A DNA stretch of 29,411 nt. Source: Christensenellaceae bacterium (GTDB taxonomy: Bacteria; Bacillota; Clostridia; Christensenellales; UBA1750). Numbering within the stretch: the stretch's first letter is position 1; every line of letters begins with the position of its first letter. The DNA lies in NCBI GenBank assembly GCA_031287285.1, contig JAITTC010000267.1, positions 1 to 29,411 on the forward strand, in the 5' to 3' direction. The notes under the pieces are model-generated. The model had not been told where the DNA came from. It ran no database searches and saw only the letters and a program-made list of their open reading frames with translations. The position numbers and the translations under genes are program-made. Below, piece after piece: positions 6,126-29,411 of the stretch.

Positions 6126-7304
6126 ATGAAGATCAACTCCAATTTCGAAAAAATGCCCCAAAACTACCTCTTTGCGGAGGTCGGCAAGCGCACGAGCGAA
6201 TACGTCAAGGCAAACCCCGGCAAAAAGGTGCTGCGCATGGGCATCGGCGATGTGGCGGGCCCGCTTGTGCCCGTCGTGGTCGAGGCCATGCAAAAGGCGG
6301 CGGCCGAGCTTGGCCAAAAGAAGAGTTTTAGGGGCTACCCGCCCTATGAGGGCTATGACTTCCTGCGCGAAGCGATTGCCGGCTATTACGCGGGCTTAGG
6401 CGCGCCGATTGACCCGGGCGAGGTCTACGTCAACGATGGCGCAAAGTCCGACGCGGGCAACTTCGGCGACATTTTCGACGTTGACAACGCGGTCCTCATG
6501 CCGGACCCGGTCTACCCGGTCTATCTCGATTCAAACCTCATGAGCGGCCGCCGGATCCTTTACATGAACGGAAGCGAAGAAAACGGCTTTCTGCCCCTGC
6601 CAGACCCCAGCGTGAAGGCGGATATCATCTACCTTTGCTCGCCCAACAACCCGACCGGCGCGGTTTACTCAAGGGAAGAGCTGAAGGCCTGGGTCGATTA
6701 CGCAAACGCCCAGGGTGCGGTCATCCTCTATGATGCGGCCTACGAATCCTTCATCTCTGATCCGGCGCTGCCCCGCAGCATTCTCTCCATCAAGGGTGCG
6801 CGCACTTGCGCGGTCGAGATGTGCTCGATGTCGAAGACCGCCGGGTTCACCGGCGTGCGCTGCGGCTATACCATCATCCCCAAGGAACTCATCCGCGGCG
6901 GGCAGAGCATCGGCGCGCTGTGGCTGCGCCGCCAGGCGACCAAATTCAACGGCGTTTCCTACCCCGTGCAGCGCGGGGCGGAGGCTGCCTTCAGCGAGGA
7001 AGGCTATGCCCAGTGCATGGAGGCCATCGCCTTTTATAAAGAGAACGCGGCCATCATGGGCAAGGCCATTGGCTCCTTCACGAAGTACTTTGGCGGCTCT
7101 CAGTCGCCCTATATCTGGCTCAAGTGCCCAAACGGCCTGAAGTCCTGGGAGTATTTCGACTATCTTCTCAACAGCCTGCAAATCGTGGGCACGCCGGGCG
7201 CGGGCTTTGGCAAGATGGGCGAAGGCTATCTGCGGCTCACCGCCTTTGGCGAGCGCGAGGCCGTGCTCGAAGCCATGGAGCGCATCCAAAAGGCGCCGTT
7301 TTAA
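6126..7304 (+). CDS. dapL: LL-diaminopimelate aminotransferase
   Basis: NYLF, MGIGDV, GYPPYEGY, DGAKSD, DPVYPVY, LCSPNNPTG, SMSKTAGFTGVRCG, PGAGFG..GEGYLRLTAF. Confidence 0.94.
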   Translation: MKINSNFEKMPQNYLFAEVGKRTSEYVKANPGKKVLRMGIGDVAGPLVPVVVEAMQKAAAELGQKKSFRGYPPYEGYDFLREAIAGYYAGLGAPIDPGEVYVNDGAKSDAGNFGDIFDVDNAVLMPDPVYPVYLDSNLMSGRRILYMNGSEENGFLPLPDPSVKADIIYLCSPNNPTGAVYSREELKAWVDYANAQGAVILYDAAYESFISDPALPRSILSIKGARTCAVEMCSMSKTAGFTGVRCGYTIIPKELIRGGQSIGALWLRRQATKFNGVSYPVQRGAEAAFSEEGYAQCMEAIAFYKENAAIMGKAIGSFTKYFGGSQSPYIWLKCPNGLKSWEYFDYLLNSLQIVGTPGAGFGKMGEGYLRLTAFGEREAVLEAMERIQKAPF

Positions 7305-7328
7305 GCCTTTTATTCTGCCATAAAAAGA

Positions 7329-7362
7329 GGAAGCGCCCTGGCGAAAGCGGGCGCTTCCTTTT
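7329..7362 (+). terminator. Intrinsic terminator after dapL
   Basis: GGAAGCGCCC (7329-7338) / GGGCGCTTCC (7349-7358), then TTTT. Confidence 0.75.
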
Positions 7363-7450: not shown

Positions 7451-7603
7451 TTCCCGGGGGAATTGCAAAGGGGGGATGAAAATCCCCTCTTTGCCCATCA
7501 AAAGGCGCGAAAAGCGCCTTTTTTAATTGAAGGGAGTTTCCCCGCAGGGAAACTCCATCCTCAAAATCAAATCGGGCCCCAAAGCGATCGCTTTGGGGCC
7601 CGA
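7451..7603 (+). other. Multi-hairpin structured element, copy 1 (homologous to 14710-14835 minus)
   Basis: Stems at 7465-7494 (13 bp, one G-T, GAAA loop), 7500-7524 (10 bp), 7533-7556 (10 bp perfect) and 7572-7603 (32-bp perfect palindrome). Linkers TTAATTGAAGGG and ATCCTCAAAATCAAA. Confidence 0.7.
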
Positions 7604-7634: not shown

Positions 7635-9311
7635 TTATTTGAGCTCGCCGTTGTTGAGCTCGTCCAGAACCTTCTGCACTTCAGGCATCATGGACGCAAC
7701 GACCTTATCCCACTCGGCCTCGATGTCGATGCCGGGCTGCGCCAGCAGGGCGACCAGTTTTTCCTTCGAGGTAGAGCCGAAGGAGCCGTTCTTGTCTTTA
7801 TTCGGCGCGGAACCGAAGGAAACGACATAGTCGAATTCCTTGATGACCACGGGAACCTGGCCCGAAGCCATGGTGCTCCACAGCCTGTTGCGCTCTTCGA
7901 ACATGTAGGGGATCGCGTCAGGCCCGATCAGCACGGAGTTCATGACCGCGCCGCAGGCAGCGTTCGCCTCGCCAAACTCAGAGATATTCGTGAAGGGGTT
8001 CACGTAGGACTGCGTCGCCTCGTTGAATTCCCAGTTCAGCTTCACGTCCTCGGGGTTCGGGCCGGTGACTTCAAAGTCCACGCCCTCGCGGCCCCAAGCG
8101 CGCATGCGAATACCGTCGGTCGTGTGCAGGTACTCCCAGAAGTCCAGCACGCGCTCGATCTTTTCCTCGCTGATCTTGTGGCTAAGGGCGGTGACCGTCC
8201 AGTAGTCCTCGGTCTGGGTCATGTACCAGTTGCCGTCCCAGGAGGTAACGATTGCGATGCCGAAATCGGAGCGATCCTTGATGACGCCGTCTTGCAGCAT
8301 GGTGGTCGTCCAGTCGTTGAGGGAGCCGGTGACGTTGTAATCGGCAAAGGCCAGGCCGGATTTGATCATGTTCTCGGCTTCGGAAGCGTTGAAGAGCATG
8401 TTATCCTTGTAGATCAGGCCTTCTTGGTACATGTCGTAGGTGACCTTGACGCCCTGCTTGAAGGCTTCGGTTGCCGGCGGCCAAATATACTTGCCGCTGT
8501 CGTCCTTGATGTAGGAGCTGGTTTCGTTGCCTTCCGCGGCGGGCGGGCCAACGAATAGGGCAGCTGCGTGCGGGAAGCCCCAGGTGGGCATCACGAGGCC
8601 TGCGCCTGCGTCCTTATTTCCGCCGGGATCCTGCTTTAAGACCTCGCGGACCAGGTTCACCCACTCATCCCAGGTGTAGATGTCGCCTTCCTTGTAGAGG
8701 CCGACGGCCTTTGCCCAGTCCCTGCGATAGGACCAGTGCGAGGTGTAGCAGCTCTGGGCCTCCGGCGGGTTGGCGCGCATCGCGGGCCAGGAATAGAGCA
8801 CGCCGTCAACGCTCAGGGCGTCGATTGATTTAGAGCTTTCGTAGGTCTTAGTCAGGTTGGGGCGGCTTTCGTTAAAGTACTTCGCGTCCAGCGGGGCGAA
8901 AGCGCCCTGGCGGGCCCAGTCGGCGTATTGCTGCGCCTGCTGGCCCTTCAGGTCCCACCAGATCAGGTCGGGCGCATCGTCGGTCGCGACCCAGGTCGAA
9001 ATCTTCGTGTTCCAATCGCTCCAGTCGATGGGCACATAGTCGAAGCTCAGGTTGAAGAGCTCCTTAACGATCTCGTGCCGCACGTCGATGCCGTTCTTTT
9101 CCGCATTGAGCACGTTCATCGAAACCGTCAGCGGGGTGTCGTAGTTCGAACCACCCTCGGGGGCTGCGGTTGCGCCGCCCTCCGCCGGGGCGCTGGTGGC
9201 CGGCTTGTCGGTCGCGGGGGCCGCGGACTCGCCGCCGGGCGTCGGGGATTGGCAGGCTGCTATGCTCAGCACGAGCAAAAGCGCCAGGCCTAAGGTCAGA
9301 AATTTCTTCAT
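7635..9311 (-). CDS. Carbohydrate ABC transporter solute-binding lipoprotein (LplA-like)
   Basis: Signal peptide MKKFLTLGLALLLVLSIAAC with lipobox Cys, Pro/Ala/Thr linker, PDLIWW and LYSWP SBP-1-like segments. Start at ATG 9311 after AGGAGGAG. Confidence 0.85.
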   Translation of the reverse strand: MKKFLTLGLALLLVLSIAACQSPTPGGESAAPATDKPATSAPAEGGATAAPEGGSNYDTPLTVSMNVLNAEKNGIDVRHEIVKELFNLSFDYVPIDWSDWNTKISTWVATDDAPDLIWWDLKGQQAQQYADWARQGAFAPLDAKYFNESRPNLTKTYESSKSIDALSVDGVLYSWPAMRANPPEAQSCYTSHWSYRRDWAKAVGLYKEGDIYTWDEWVNLVREVLKQDPGGNKDAGAGLVMPTWGFPHAAALFVGPPAAEGNETSSYIKDDSGKYIWPPATEAFKQGVKVTYDMYQEGLIYKDNMLFNASEAENMIKSGLAFADYNVTGSLNDWTTTMLQDGVIKDRSDFGIAIVTSWDGNWYMTQTEDYWTVTALSHKISEEKIERVLDFWEYLHTTDGIRMRAWGREGVDFEVTGPNPEDVKLNWEFNEATQSYVNPFTNISEFGEANAACGAVMNSVLIGPDAIPYMFEERNRLWSTMASGQVPVVIKEFDYVVSFGSAPNKDKNGSFGSTSKEKLVALLAQPGIDIEAEWDKVVASMMPEVQKVLDELNNGELK

Positions 9312-9372
9312 GGTTCTCCTCCTCTCGATATGTGAAAAGGGACCTCCCTTCACAAAGGGGCAAAAGCGGGGG

Positions 9373-14144: not shown

Positions 14145-14594
14145 CTAAACGCTGAGTTTTTGGGCCTCTTCGCCGCAGAGCACGGCGGGGGAGGGTTCGG
14201 TCAGCAGATCCTGCAGGGTGATGGAGATCAAAACATCGTTTACCCCGTCGTGGATGCGCTGCCAAAGGCTATGCATCGCGCAATTCGTGGCGTTTTCACA
14301 CTGCTCCTCGTCGAGTACGCAGCTCGCCGGGGCCGTCGGGCCTTCCAGCGCCGTGATCACCGCGTAGGCTGAGATTTCATTCGGGGGCTTGGCCAGCTCG
14401 TAGCCGCCCTGCGCGCCCCGGATCGACTTCACCAGCCCCGCGCGCCGCAGGGGGGCGATGAGCTGCTCGAGGTAGGCTTCCGGCACGCCCTGCCGCCCGG
14501 CAATCTCCTTGACCGAAAGCGGGCCGCTGCCAAAGCGCAGCGCAAGCTCATACATCGCCCGCACGCCGTAGCGCCCCTTTGTGGAAAGCTTCAT
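14145..14594 (-). CDS. iscR: Rrf2-family regulator, IscR-like
   Basis: MKLSTKGRYG, YLEQL, SIRGAQGGY, C-x6-C-x5-C plus downstream His. It heads the isc operon. Start at ATG 14594 after GGAGGG. Confidence 0.85.
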   Translation of the reverse strand: MKLSTKGRYGVRAMYELALRFGSGPLSVKEIAGRQGVPEAYLEQLIAPLRRAGLVKSIRGAQGGYELAKPPNEISAYAVITALEGPTAPASCVLDEEQCENATNCAMHSLWQRIHDGVNDVLISITLQDLLTEPSPAVLCGEEAQKLSV

Positions 14595-14606
14595 TTCGTC
14601 CCCTCC

Positions 14607-14631
14607 AATGCCGAGTGAAATCATCGGATTT
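14607..14631. promoter_or_regulatory. Putative IscR/Rrf2 operator 1
   Basis: AATG-CCGA-GTGAAATCA-TCGG-ATTT, a 25-bp pseudo-palindrome between the predicted start site and the RBS. Confidence 0.6.
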
Positions 14632-14640
14632 TATGGCTTT

Positions 14641-14669
14641 AGAATAGCACGGCCCCTCGCGGCCGTCAA
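14641..14669 (-). promoter_or_regulatory. Promoter of the iscR operon
   Basis: Minus strand TTGACG (14669-14664), 17 bp, TATTCT (14646-14641). Confidence 0.65.
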
Positions 14670-14671
14670 GC

Positions 14672-14696
14672 TATTCCGATTCATTTTATAGGATTT
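14672..14696. promoter_or_regulatory. Putative IscR/Rrf2 operator 2
   Basis: TATT-CCGA-TTCATTTTA-TAGG-ATTT, with the same CC/GG spacing as operator 1, abutting the -35. Confidence 0.6.
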
Positions 14697-14709
14697 TAAC
14701 CTTCTGCAT

Positions 14710-14835
14710 GCCCGGCGCGGGCTTTGAATTCGCGGAAGGCATTCCGCAAGCGGAATGCCCTTGAATGAAGGCGCGAAAAGCTATTGCTTTTCGCGCAAAG
14801 GCGGGGGAGCAACTCCCCCTGCACCCCTTCCGGGG
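14710..14835 (-). other. Multi-hairpin structured element, copy 2 (homologous to 7451-7603 plus)
   Basis: Stems at 14803-14819 (7 bp), 14771-14796 (11 bp perfect), 14738-14759 (10 bp perfect) and 14710-14722 (5 bp). Minus-strand linkers TTCATTCAAGGG and TTCCGCGAATTCAAA. Confidence 0.7.
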
Positions 14836-14985
14836 CTGGCTGCGAGCAGCCATTGCTTTGCGAAACGCCCGAGGTTTGGCGTCGCTATGCAAAACGGCCA
14901 CGGCCGCCGCAAAAGGGGCAAGAGGCAATCAATTCAGCCGCTGCAAGCGACAAAAACCCGTAAGCGCCACCATCATGCCCTCGCC

Positions 14986-15110
14986 ATGTTTTTCTCGCCG
15001 CTTCGTGTTGGGATGGCTTACCAAACAGGCTGATTTTGGCGCTGGTCCTCGCCGTGAGCGCGGTGGTGATCCCGGGCGCCGTTTGGGCCATCGCTAGGGA
15101 CTTTCTTTAA
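14986..15110 (+). pseudogene. Possible frameshifted remnant of a small membrane-protein gene (C-terminal part)
   Basis: MFFSPLRVGMAYQTG (14986-15030) continues after a one-base shift as LILALVLAVSAVVIPGAVWAIARDFL-TAA (15030-15110). It is hydrophobic, uses host-like codons, and its stop abuts a terminator arm. Confidence 0.35.
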
Positions 15111-15126: not shown

Positions 15127-15685
15127 AGAGAGCATCGTCCCTACGAAAAGCGGAGCGATGCGGAAACCGCAATGACGGGCAAAAGACGAGGACATGGCTG
15201 CACTTCTTCATCATTGCGAGGAGCGTAAGCGGCGAAGCAATCCAACAAGTACGCGCAAAGCCTTCTTTAAAAAGGAAGACGCTGGATTGCTTCGTTGCCA
15301 CTCGCAATGACGAGGTAGAGGGAGGCGCTGGGTTGCTTCTTCGTCATTGCAAAGAGCCAGCGACGTGGCGGTTGTAAAGGGTACTCCGCGGCTTCGTCAT
15401 TGCGAGGAGCGTAAGCGACGAAGCAATCCAGCAAGCATGTGCAAAGGCTCCTTCAAAAAGGAAGACGCTGGATTGTTTCGTTGCCACTCGCAATGACGAG
15501 GTAGAGGGAGGCGCTGGGTTGCTTCTTCGTCATTGCAAAGAGCGCAGCGACGTGGCGGTCGTAAAGGGTACTCTGCGGCTTCGTCATTGCGAGGAGCGTA
15601 AGCGACGTGGCAATCCAGCAAGAACGCGCAAAGCCTCCTTCAAAAAGGAAGACGCTGGATTGCTTCGTTGCCACTCGCAATGACG
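15127..15685. repeat. Tandem array 1 of a 104-bp CGTC-tagged palindromic (REP-like) unit, 3 copies
   Basis: Units at 15209-15312, 15395-15498 and 15582-15685 (period 186/187 bp): CGTCATTGCGAG-GAGCGTAAGCGA-CGAAGCAATCCAGC-N34-GCTGGATTGCTTCG-TTGCCA-CTCGCAATGACG. Flanked by the direct repeat GGCGGCGGGAA at 15116-15126 and 15685-15695. Confidence 0.95.
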
Positions 15686-15721
15686 GCGGCGGGAAGGTGA
15701 ACCCCTTCCCGCCGCCCTTTT
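15685..15721. terminator. Terminator hairpin downstream of the M20 dipeptidase gene
   Basis: GGCGGCGGGAAGG-TGAACC-CCTTCCCGCCGCC, then CTTTT, 8 bp from the minus-strand stop codon. Confidence 0.7.
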
Positions 15722-15728
15722 CATGCGC

Positions 15729-17168
15729 CTATAGCTCGCCGGTCCATTCCGCCAGCGCCAGGATGTAGATCTCGATTCCCTTGAGCAGGTCATCCACATA
15801 AAGCGCCTCATCGGGCGCGTGGGCACCGCCGTGCCCGGGCGGGAAGAGCGCCGGATCCTGCGCATGCCCTAAGCCCTTTGGCAGGCCCATGCCAAAGACC
15901 AGCCCGTTTGGCAGCTTGCGCGCGTAGGTGCCGCCGCTCATCGCGTAGGGCTCTGCCTGCGCGCCCGCGACCTCGTTAAAGGCCTTCGTCAGCGCCTTCA
16001 CCACAGGGCTTTCCTTGGGGAAGTGATTTGGCTTGTTCGCCTGCACGAGCTGTGCCTTGTAAGCGCCCCGTTCACAGGCCTTGGCGATGCCCGCCAAGAG
16101 TTCCTCGAGCTTTGCCGTGACGGGGTAGCGAATGTTGAACTGCAAGACGGGCCGTCTTTGCTCGTCAAGGCTCAAAAGGCTGCCCACGGAGGTCAGCGCG
16201 CCGCTGATCTCGTCCTCGCAGGCGATGCCAAAGCCGAAGCCGTTCAAGCCGATGCCCGCTTTGAGCAAAAACGCCAGGGCATTTTCGTCCCCATCGCCCA
16301 AAATCCCGGCGAAGAACAGCCCGCGCAGCAGCTTTTGGATGGCGTTCACGCCACCCTCTGGCCTGGCCGAGTGGCTGGCCACGCCGTGCGCCCGGATTTT
16401 GACGCTTTTTTCGCCATGTTCCGCCTCAAGGCCATCGGGAAGGCCCTTTTGGAGCTTTTCTGTAAGCGCTTCGCCTGCCTTCAGCTCGATTTCGGCCAGA
16501 TCCGGCACGATGTTGCTGGCCTGTCCGCCCCTGAGCGCCAAAACGGCCTCGCTCAAGGGGGCGTCACCCAAGAGCTTGATCTCGATGATGCCCTTTTCGG
16601 CAAAGCCCACGGGGAAGGAGCCGTCCGCCACCAACGACAGCGCGGGCGCCTCGTAGTTTGCGACATAATGCGTCGCATCGTCCATGCCCGTTTCCTCGCT
16701 GCAGCCCAGGAAGATGCGCAGGGGCTTTGCTGGGCGCAGGCCCAGCTCCTTCATCGCAAGCGCCGCATAGAGCGCGCCGACCGCGGGGCCCTTATTGTCG
16801 GCAACGCCGCGGCCGATGAGGTAACCCTCCTTTTCGATGGGTGAAAAGGGCTGAGCGTGCAGCCAGCCTTCGCCCGGCGGAACCACGTCCAGATGCCCCC
16901 AGATGCCGATGCTGCCGGGGGCCGTTTCGCCTTCGCCAAGCCAAAGCGCGCCGACCTTATAGTCGTAATTTTGCGTAAAAAAGCCCAGTTCCGCGCCGAG
17001 TTTCAAGGCCTCGTCCAGCACGTCGCGGCAGGCCTTTCCGTAGGGGCCGGGCTGCGCGCCAGAGTCGCTGATGCTTGGAATGCGCGCCAGCCGGAGGATA
17101 TCCCTCACGATCTGCGGCCGTTTTTCCTCCAGCCAAGCCCGCACGCTTTTTCGCGTTTCGCTGCTCAT
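15729..17168 (-). CDS. M20 metallo-dipeptidase (PepV/Sapep-like)
   Basis: GHLDVVP, GRGVADNKGP, GCSEETGM, ADGSF, SGGTYAR, AHAPDE. Confidence 0.9.
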   Translation of the reverse strand: MSSETRKSVRAWLEEKRPQIVRDILRLARIPSISDSGAQPGPYGKACRDVLDEALKLGAELGFFTQNYDYKVGALWLGEGETAPGSIGIWGHLDVVPPGEGWLHAQPFSPIEKEGYLIGRGVADNKGPAVGALYAALAMKELGLRPAKPLRIFLGCSEETGMDDATHYVANYEAPALSLVADGSFPVGFAEKGIIEIKLLGDAPLSEAVLALRGGQASNIVPDLAEIELKAGEALTEKLQKGLPDGLEAEHGEKSVKIRAHGVASHSARPEGGVNAIQKLLRGLFFAGILGDGDENALAFLLKAGIGLNGFGFGIACEDEISGALTSVGSLLSLDEQRRPVLQFNIRYPVTAKLEELLAGIAKACERGAYKAQLVQANKPNHFPKESPVVKALTKAFNEVAGAQAEPYAMSGGTYARKLPNGLVFGMGLPKGLGHAQDPALFPPGHGGAHAPDEALYVDDLLKGIEIYILALAEWTGEL

Positions 17169-28544: not shown

Positions 28545-29411
28545 CGGATTTCCTTCGTGGGCGGCGCTGCCGCATGGCGCCCTTCGCCGCTATCGCATCG
28601 TGCCCCTTTCGTCATTGCGAGTGGTAACGAAGCAATCCAGCGTACTTCGTCGCTTACACGCCTCGCAATGACGGTGGATACGCCGCTCCTTCGTGGGTGA
28701 CGCTGTCGCATGGCGCCCTCGTCGTCATTGTGAGTGGCAACGAAGCAATCCAGCGCACTTCCACTTTGCAGCCCTTTGCACGTACTCGCTGGATTGCTTC
28801 GTCGCCTGCGCTCCTCGCAATGACGGTGGGTGCGCCGCTCCTTCGTAGGTGACGCTGTCGCATCGCGCCCTTTTCGTCATTGCGAGTGGCAACGAAGCAA
28901 TCCAGCGTACTTCCTCTTTGCATGCCCTTTGCACGTGCTCGCTGGATTGCTTCGTCGCTTGCGCTCCTCGCGATGATGGCGGCCCCATCAAGGCGATGGC
29001 CTCGTTGCGCCGCTCCTTCGTAGATGACGCTATCGCATCGTGCCCTCTTCGTCATTGCGAGTGGCAACGAAGCAATCCAGCGTGCTTCCTCTTCGCAGTA
29101 CCTTTGCACGTGCTCGCTGGATTGCTTCGTCGCCTGCGCTCCTCGCGATGACGGCGGCCCCATCAAGGCGATGGCCTCGCTACACCGTTTCTTCGTGGGT
29201 GGCGCTGCCGCATGGTGCCCTTCGCCGCTATCGCATCGTGCCCTTTTCGTCATTGCGAGTGGCAACGAAGCAATCCAGCGTATCTCCTCTTCGCAGTACC
29301 TTTGCACGTGCTCGCTGGATTGCTTCGTCGCCTGCGCTCCTCGCAATGACGGTGGGTGCGCCGCTCCTTCGTAGGTGACGCTGTCGCATCGTGCCCCTTT
29401 CGTCCTTGCGA
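28545..29411. repeat. Tandem array 2 of the same 104-bp palindromic unit in opposite orientation; runs off the window end
   Basis: Units at 28610-28673 (internally deleted), 28723-28825, 28875-28978, 29050-29153, 29248-29351, and a sixth starting at 29401. Each is CGTCATTGCGAG-TGGCAA-CGAAGCAATCCAGC...GCTGGATTGCTTCG-TCGCCTGCGCTC-CTCGCAATGACG. The left boundary is approximate. Confidence 0.95.

Follow-up and report, generated by a model that had tools for sequence, protein, structure and literature searches.

The two hairpin-rich stretches described here from a 29,411-nt piece of Christensenellaceae DNA (hereafter the window), copy A at 7451..7573 on the plus strand and copy B at 14721..14835 on the minus strand, are diverged members of a multi-copy, non-coding, hairpin-rich repeat family, which is dispersed in the intergenic DNA of a few Christensenellaceae genomes of termite-gut type. 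With a probability of roughly 0.6, we interpret this family as a new, lineage-restricted group of modular, BOX/BIME-like non-coding interspersed repeats; it is new as a family, not as a kind. According to this model, the repeat would have spread at the DNA level by a transposition or recombination route, a mobility that we infer, and most copies, copy A above all, would now be decaying passengers. A local effect, if any, would come from stable stem-loops placed at transcript 3' ends, where they may act as barriers or stabilisers.

Direct reading of both strands bears out the similar order of parts that a first-pass annotation had reported for the two stretches. In either stretch, a hairpin made of a C run and a G run is followed by TGC and by a G-rich hairpin with TTTGC at its close; next come a third hairpin with GCGCCTT as its end, a linker, a hairpin of about 10 bp and a second linker. 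As claimed, the first linkers (TTAATTGAAGGG vs TTCATTCAAGGG) are identical at 10 of 12 positions, and the stems of the ~10-bp hairpin (GGAGTTTCCC/GGGAAACTCC in copy A, GGCATTCCGC/GCGGAATGCC in copy B) differ at four positions, all four of which are compensated. The identical 10-bp register ascribed to these stems applies to copy A with its 10 pairs, but copy B has nine effective pairs; its tenth would close a 2-nt loop. The second linkers (ATCCTCAAAATCAAA and TTCCGCGAATTCAAA) indeed share 11 of 15 positions, although part of this linker in copy A is the T-tract of an adjoining minus-strand terminator. The supposedly common 'final hairpin' is not homologous: that of copy A is the terminator of a neighbouring gene, and that of copy B is a small 5-bp hairpin (14710..14722, minus strand) that is absent from the other copies by sequence comparison. 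When aligned with MAFFT, copies A and B show a mean column identity of 72%, and the folding of the intergenic regions that contain them is far more stable than that of shuffled sequence, at z-scores of -7.8 and -3.3, respectively.

The same annotation had taken the element to be present twice, as a discrete stretch of 130-150 nt ending in the final hairpin. This delimitation is unsupported. The window's own assembly (G000; 270 contigs, 1.68 Mb, 60% G+C, 88% complete) contains about six such units, relatives contain further ones, and the unit measures about 85 nt, or about 115 nt with an optional hairpin. It starts with a short CCCC-GAG-GGGG hairpin, followed by a GGGGGAG...CTCCCCC hairpin and by the position of the optional third hairpin, which is empty in many copies and occupied by varied GC-rich hairpins in others. 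The linker TTCATTCAAGG (consensus form TT(C)ATTCAAGG) then leads to hairpin 4, in which the AAG/CTT base is conserved and the top is variable, and to TCCGC. Among 28 units, hairpin 4 occurs with at least seven different stems, framed by CAAGG and TCCGC as conserved flanks.

In the window's genus, the unit, or its first two hairpins alone, usually forms the 3' end of a larger mosaic. A motif scan of G000 detected the GGGGGAG hairpin about 13 times, always after about 150 nt of conserved sequence, and iterated nhmmer searches of the same assembly led to a 523-position profile with about 35 matches, many of them at contig ends. The element proper spans profile positions ~54 to 523, that is, about 470 nt. 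A given copy may have module 1 (~54-330), module 2 (~330-523) or the two together, and several combinations of module 1, module 2 and a tail occur, with hairpin 3 being optional. The tail consists of the optional hairpin 3, the linker, hairpin 4 and TCCGCG..TCAAA; it is present in six G000 copies, namely A, B and those on contigs C162, C157, C13 and, more loosely, C49. All copies are intergenic according to a GC3-based gene call. The mosaic of modules 1 and 2 is present on G000 contigs C92, C124, C223, C205 and about 30 others. Its module 1 is composed of successive GC-rich hairpins whose loops resemble CGCTCCGCTCG.

Copy B (R1, 113.7 bits; the model is described below) is a well-preserved unit. 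On the minus strand, alignments place its hairpin 1 at 14824-14835, the core hairpin at 14801-14822, hairpin 3 at 14771-14796, the linker at 14760-14770, hairpin 4 at 14738-14759 and the TCCGCG..TCAAA tail at 14721-14737. By blastn against its own assembly it is 90% identical to contig C162 over 111 nt, and partial matches occur elsewhere. The element in fact extends upstream to about 14900: the stretch 14800..14900 (minus strand) matches profile positions 422-522 with an nhmmer E value of 3e-19 and represents a truncated 3' part of module 2 whose end is formed by the first two hairpins of copy B. Hence, copy B comprises profile positions 422-522 plus the tail. Two open frames run across it (14765-15097, plus strand; 14686-14928, minus strand), both with flat GC1/2/3 values of about 0.58-0.63 as against a GC3 of about 0.8 in the real genes of the window; since, in addition, GC3 is flat over these frames (0.58-0.59) and copies differ from one another by gaps of 1-2 nt, the frames are not genes. 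Copy B is not the leader of the adjacent Rrf2-family gene (14145..14624, minus strand; PF02082) either, because a scan located a promoter-like site of this gene (TTGACG, 17 nt, TATTCT; 14641..14669, minus strand) downstream of the copy. This promoter region is conserved in the sister species genome G001 (a MAG, 97% complete), where copy B is absent and the two sequences are again homologous from about 14706, immediately upstream of the promoter.

Copy A is the most diverged member of the family, as judged from two covariance models and from the orthologous region of G001. Sequence, folding and covariance-model alignment define a degenerate first hairpin (7453-7462) and a core hairpin with a 13-bp stem including one G:T pair and a GAAA loop (7465..7494), which the covariance-model alignment identifies as the counterpart of the GGGGGAG hairpin of the family. 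The optional third hairpin (AAAAGGCGC / GCGCCTTTT; 7500..7522) is followed by the linker TTAATTGAAG together with hairpin 4 (7523..7556), the latter consisting of its two stem arms around the loop CGCA (7533-7556), and by an A-rich 3' linker (7557..7571), all on the plus strand. Read on the minus strand, the A-rich linker is the T-tract of the next hairpin, a 14-bp stem followed by TTTGATTTTG (7572..7603, minus strand), which is the intrinsic terminator of the gene at 7635..9353 (minus strand) and lies outside the repeat. The product of this gene is a 572-amino-acid protein with gene-like codon usage (GC3 of 0.82) and no Pfam family at E ≤ 1e-3. On the other side, a terminator-like hairpin with a T run (7325..7357, plus strand), recognized by folding and sequence, follows the aminotransferase gene 6126..7304 (plus strand; PF00155).

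That a resident terminator with its T-tract supplies both the last hairpin and the A-rich linker of copy A might suggest that the two stretches are arrays of GC-rich terminator hairpins which resemble each other by chance. The model R1, built from eight tails with copy A left out, nevertheless assigns 44.4 bits to copy A (E 4.8e-10), as compared with 12 bits for the best match elsewhere in the window outside both elements. Under the stricter R2 (85 positions, 15 units from three genomes, copy A again left out) it reaches only 27.3 bits (E 3e-4) in a search of the window, and it misses E ≤ 1e-3 in a genome-wide search. Taken together, these scores indicate that copy A is a genuine but the most diverged member. 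Its membership is further supported by a family member in the orthologous intergenic region of G001, where a complete copy of modules 1 and 2 without a tail is followed by the conserved terminal hairpin of copy A (7572-7603). The locus is thus occupied in both genomes, by different module sets. With the order of linker, hairpin and linker recurring in 28 units as well, chance resemblance is very improbable. Copy A lies between two convergent terminators and no promoter-like site was seen there, which makes it probably untranscribed; we picture it as a remodelled remnant in a probably untranscribed gap.

The covariance-model search of the genome and its relatives that had been proposed by the first-pass annotation uncovered further copies and at the same time a patchy distribution. 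Among 41 relatives, a BLAST search with a full copy detected the family in no genomes other than G000 and G001, apart from fragments limited to hairpins in G018, a genome of another genus (a MAG, 87% complete). In the family, R1 was positive in three of 20 genomes (G000, G001 and G018), G018 being the only positive species among eight of its genus. In a sample of the order comprising 151 genomes from 95 genera, to which G018 does not belong, R2 detected only G000 and G001. An exact-pattern scan of 185,579 species genomes returned a single match, G001, and two metagenome scans returned no match to the element. At E ≤ 1e-3, R2 yields 11 matches in G000, 12 in G001 and 22 in G018, some of which consist of the first two hairpins alone; full units number about six in G000 and at least five in G001. 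Copies of the unit in G018 amount to at least 22, some of them in tandem. There the ~85-nt unit stands alone, with neither module 1 nor module 2 upstream, and the hairpin-4 stems differ yet again (GCGAACCC, GCGGGCCC, GCGAATCC). On contigs C255, C173 and C60 of G018, tandem pairs of the 85-nt unit start 120-200 nt apart, and the 3' flanks of G018 units occur in two recurring versions, GCTTCC... and GCGTAAAA....

Compensatory change in the stems was correctly recognized from the two window copies and turned out to be stronger than these could reveal. When 15 units are simply aligned with MAFFT, 95.2% of the cells pair and 10 of 22 pairs change on both sides, values reached by none of 500 shuffles and not approached by slid controls. 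With 28 units, pairing remains at 95.1% of the cells and 15 of the 22 pairs change on both sides. The two genera have retained the same unit architecture although their hairpin-4 stems are completely different, an indication of selection on a fold. Because the architecture survives the complete turnover of one stem, we propose that the folded hairpins are probably needed for spread or retention of the repeat.

Such covariation does not prove that the repeat acts as RNA, because compensated stems are equally expected for DNA palindromes. Palindromic DNA repeats show the same paired changes, and hairpin-templated repair can yield them even without selection. The alternative that the unit or the ~470-nt mosaic belongs to a structured-RNA family, either acting in trans as a small RNA or placed in 3' untranslated regions as a cis element that stops exonucleases or serves as a protein-binding site, is in our view unlikely. 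It would account for the both-side changes in hairpins of 28 units from three genomes and for the conservation of the linkers among units, and co-transcription is frequent for REP and BOX elements (PMC3733652, PMC3049150). A further weak covariation signal comes from a putative long-range helix in module 2, with flanks whose pairing is stronger inside one copy than across different copies (-6.1 vs -5.1 kcal/mol; permutation p~0.006), which would fit a single-stranded fold, of RNA or ssDNA, weakly better than a cruciform. The RNAalifold consensus of module 2 consists of three local hairpins only, and a column-pair scan was swamped by G/C richness. In stems with a single mismatch, G:T and A:C occur 6 and 8 times, without strand bias. 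When all 22 pairs are considered in the 15 units, the counts become 18 and 6, with most G:T at loop-closing or base positions or inherited, and at firmly paired positions they are about equal; we base no conclusion on this wobble comparison. Against an RNA function, single substitutions break hairpin-4 pairs in closely related G001 copies.

Searches for known RNA families and for expression signals likewise speak against the RNA alternative. A comparison of the window with Rfam 15 (4,227 families) at gathering score gave no match, and nothing was found over the element on 12 copy-bearing contigs even at E ≤ 1, in line with the earlier statement that no known family could be assigned. Outside the element, these contigs gave weak hits and an ordinary THF riboswitch on G000 contig C124 (88.7 bits; locus positions 2059-2159); this riboswitch and a sub-threshold T-box leader on C223 (54 bits; locus positions 1805-2028) lie near copies and are unrelated to the repeat. 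Among public sequencing runs, the locus was found in no RNA run, and the few DNA runs contained under 20% of its words. On neither strand does the element contain a promoter-like site that is constant in position among copies. The position of copy A between convergent terminators and the occurrence of copies in both orientations relative to neighbouring genes are also difficult to reconcile with a dedicated transcript: upstream neighbours are on the same strand in 20 cases and on the opposite strand in 14, downstream neighbours in 16 and 25, respectively. The first-pass interpretation is supported in that the element is dispersed, non-coding and built from hairpins with structure-preserving changes. 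Of the two options originally offered, ncRNA or non-autonomous mobile DNA, RNA is not established by the covariation, and a dispersed DNA element fits better, also in view of the clustering of copies by genome, their presence or absence at orthologous loci and their patchy occurrence in relatives.

The 3' end faces the element in 45 of 75 scored neighbouring genes. This mild preference for gene 3' ends is compatible with the RNA alternative, and also with REP-like sites that serve the host by terminating transcription in both directions, by stabilising mRNA 3' ends or by binding gyrase- or IHF-like proteins, roles that have been suggested for REP/BIME elements. Most REPs follow genes or separate convergent ones (PMC3733652), and next to several units there is a GC-rich hairpin that has the form of a terminator when the opposite strand is read. 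In copies A and B, however, none of the unit's own hairpins is flagged as a terminator and none has a T-tract in either direction. A terminator scan at copy B flags only the 14710-14722 hairpin and one at ~14834-14852 in the truncated module-2 stretch, and in copy A only 7572-7603 (minus strand), outside the repeat, qualifies; the unit is therefore not an intrinsic terminator. Since the element is also missing from most relatives in the family and order, lacks the GTAG or CGTC tag of REP hairpins and is accompanied by no detectable RAYT gene, and since orthologous sites can be empty yet carry an ordinary terminator, we consider a host-serving role rather unlikely.

Comparison of orthologous loci, another proposal of the first-pass annotation, revealed copies that are present in one genome and absent from the other of the pair G000 and G001. 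Where G000 has a full copy of 659 nt on contig C92, the spacer of G001 measures 57 nt and includes an ordinary terminator. At two loci the sister genome is without a copy; the intergenic DNA there is too diverged for exact junctions or a target-site duplication to be read. The module-2 copies separate according to genome (support of 99/99), except for one tail-bearing G001 copy that groups among G000 copies. This genome-wise clustering could also stem from gene conversion.

Of the kinds of neighbouring enzyme that had been suggested (HUH, nuclease, reverse transcriptase), no Y1 HUH, TnpB or IS110 gene was found, and reverse transcriptases occur only away from the repeat. The Y1/RAYT transposase domain PF01797 had no match in G000, G001 or G018 (88%, 97% and 87% complete), with control genomes being positive; the TnpB zinc-ribbon PF07282 and the IS110 domain PF02371 are absent from G000 and G001, and a coding gene adjoins the element at no copy. 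Given that the genomes are incomplete MAGs, the missing transposase is weak evidence. RVT_1 had no match in G000. G001 has two reverse-transcriptase loci, one on contig C16 (101047-104652) and one on C47, with no repeat nearby; the former shows the order bAvd-like, RVT_1 and DUF6273 protein, as in diversity-generating retroelements (DGR). A retroelement-derived (SINE-like or retron) repeat is not supported, given the absence of RVT_1 from G000 and the DGR-like reverse transcriptases without repeats in G001.

Among known systems, the BOX elements of pneumococci are the closest analogues. Like RUP and SPRITE repeats they are patchily distributed and behave as parasites (Croucher et al. 2011, PMC3049150); they are modular, have no transposase of their own, are judged parasitic and turn over slowly (PMC3049150). 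Similar to the Christensenellaceae repeat, BOX combines optional or repeatable modules between fixed ends, is intergenic, forms stable stem-loops, reaches tens of copies per genome without its own transposase, and occurs in one species group and, as a separate related set, in a relative that is further away. By modules, copy number and folding, the repeat thus belongs with BOX-type modular repeats, which are a functional class and not a sequence family. There is no sequence similarity between the two, the BOX host is of another phylum than this 60% G+C Christensenellaceae lineage, and the conserved base and freely varying top of the last hairpin are peculiar to the Christensenellaceae unit. 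In addition, BOX is known to be expressed, whereas the present repeat is known from genome sequence alone.

The repeat resembles REP and BIME elements (Di Nocera et al. 2013, PMC3733652) in being composed of GC-rich extragenic palindromes in mosaics and in its bias towards the 3' ends of genes and towards intergenic regions of the convergent type; for REPs, a part in termination and in the stability of mRNA has been proposed. By contrast, it has three hairpins with conserved linkers instead of one palindrome of 20-40 bp, and no GTAG or CGTC tag is located at hairpin bases in 15-28 aligned units, the sole GTAG being inside the module-2 loop region. With neither the tag nor, in all three genomes, the Y1/RAYT gene typical of REPs and REPINs, we rejected membership in the RAYT-associated REP/BIME group. 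Small size, lack of coding capacity, multiple copies, presence/absence polymorphism and predicted secondary structure are shared with MITEs (for review, see PMC3184786). Unlike these, the repeat has no terminal inverted repeats, as end-vs-end local alignments of the full consensus, the unit and a composite copy were no better than shuffles, and no parent insertion sequence was found. The sharp 3' boundary, some 5' truncation and the multi-hairpin non-coding nature recall the omega RNA of IS200/IS605 (TnpB) elements and the bridge RNA of IS110. An IS200/IS605 omega RNA or PATE is not supported, given the absence of PF07282 and PF01797 from G000 and G001, and neither is an IS110 bridge RNA, given that of PF02371. 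As regards integron attC sites, copies of the repeat are dispersed and outside cassette arrays.

The window also contains two arrays (15206-15730 and 28550-29411) of palindromic units of about 104 nt that start with CGTCATTGCGAG and have more than 40 matching places in the sister genome. Their leading CGTC recalls the CGTC-tagged REP super-family, which reportedly is without a dedicated transposase (PMC3733652).

Taking into account the three-hairpin fold of the ~85-nt unit, one may speculate that it is a functional single-stranded structure, of RNA or ssDNA, recognised by a mobilisation or recombination system outside the known hairpin-using ones, whose genes (Y1/RAYT, TnpB and IS110) were not found. 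We regard this possibility as quite doubtful. If it were true, hairpin 4 with its conserved base and free top would be a copy-specific address or specificity element.

The scientific interest of the Christensenellaceae repeat family is modest. Its practical consequence is that about 35 intergenic stretches are marked as not to be read as regulatory RNAs or small genes, misreadings exemplified by the 'final hairpin' of copy A and the plus-strand open frame at copy B. With many copies at contig ends, the family is probably behind much of the fragmentation of the MAG. Small interspersed repeats for which no mobilising enzyme is known are frequent and little understood. The present family provides a lineage marker for a poorly known gut clade of the Christensenellaceae, and its three-hairpin architecture, kept across two genera with one stem wholly changed, makes a case for asking what recognises such folds.
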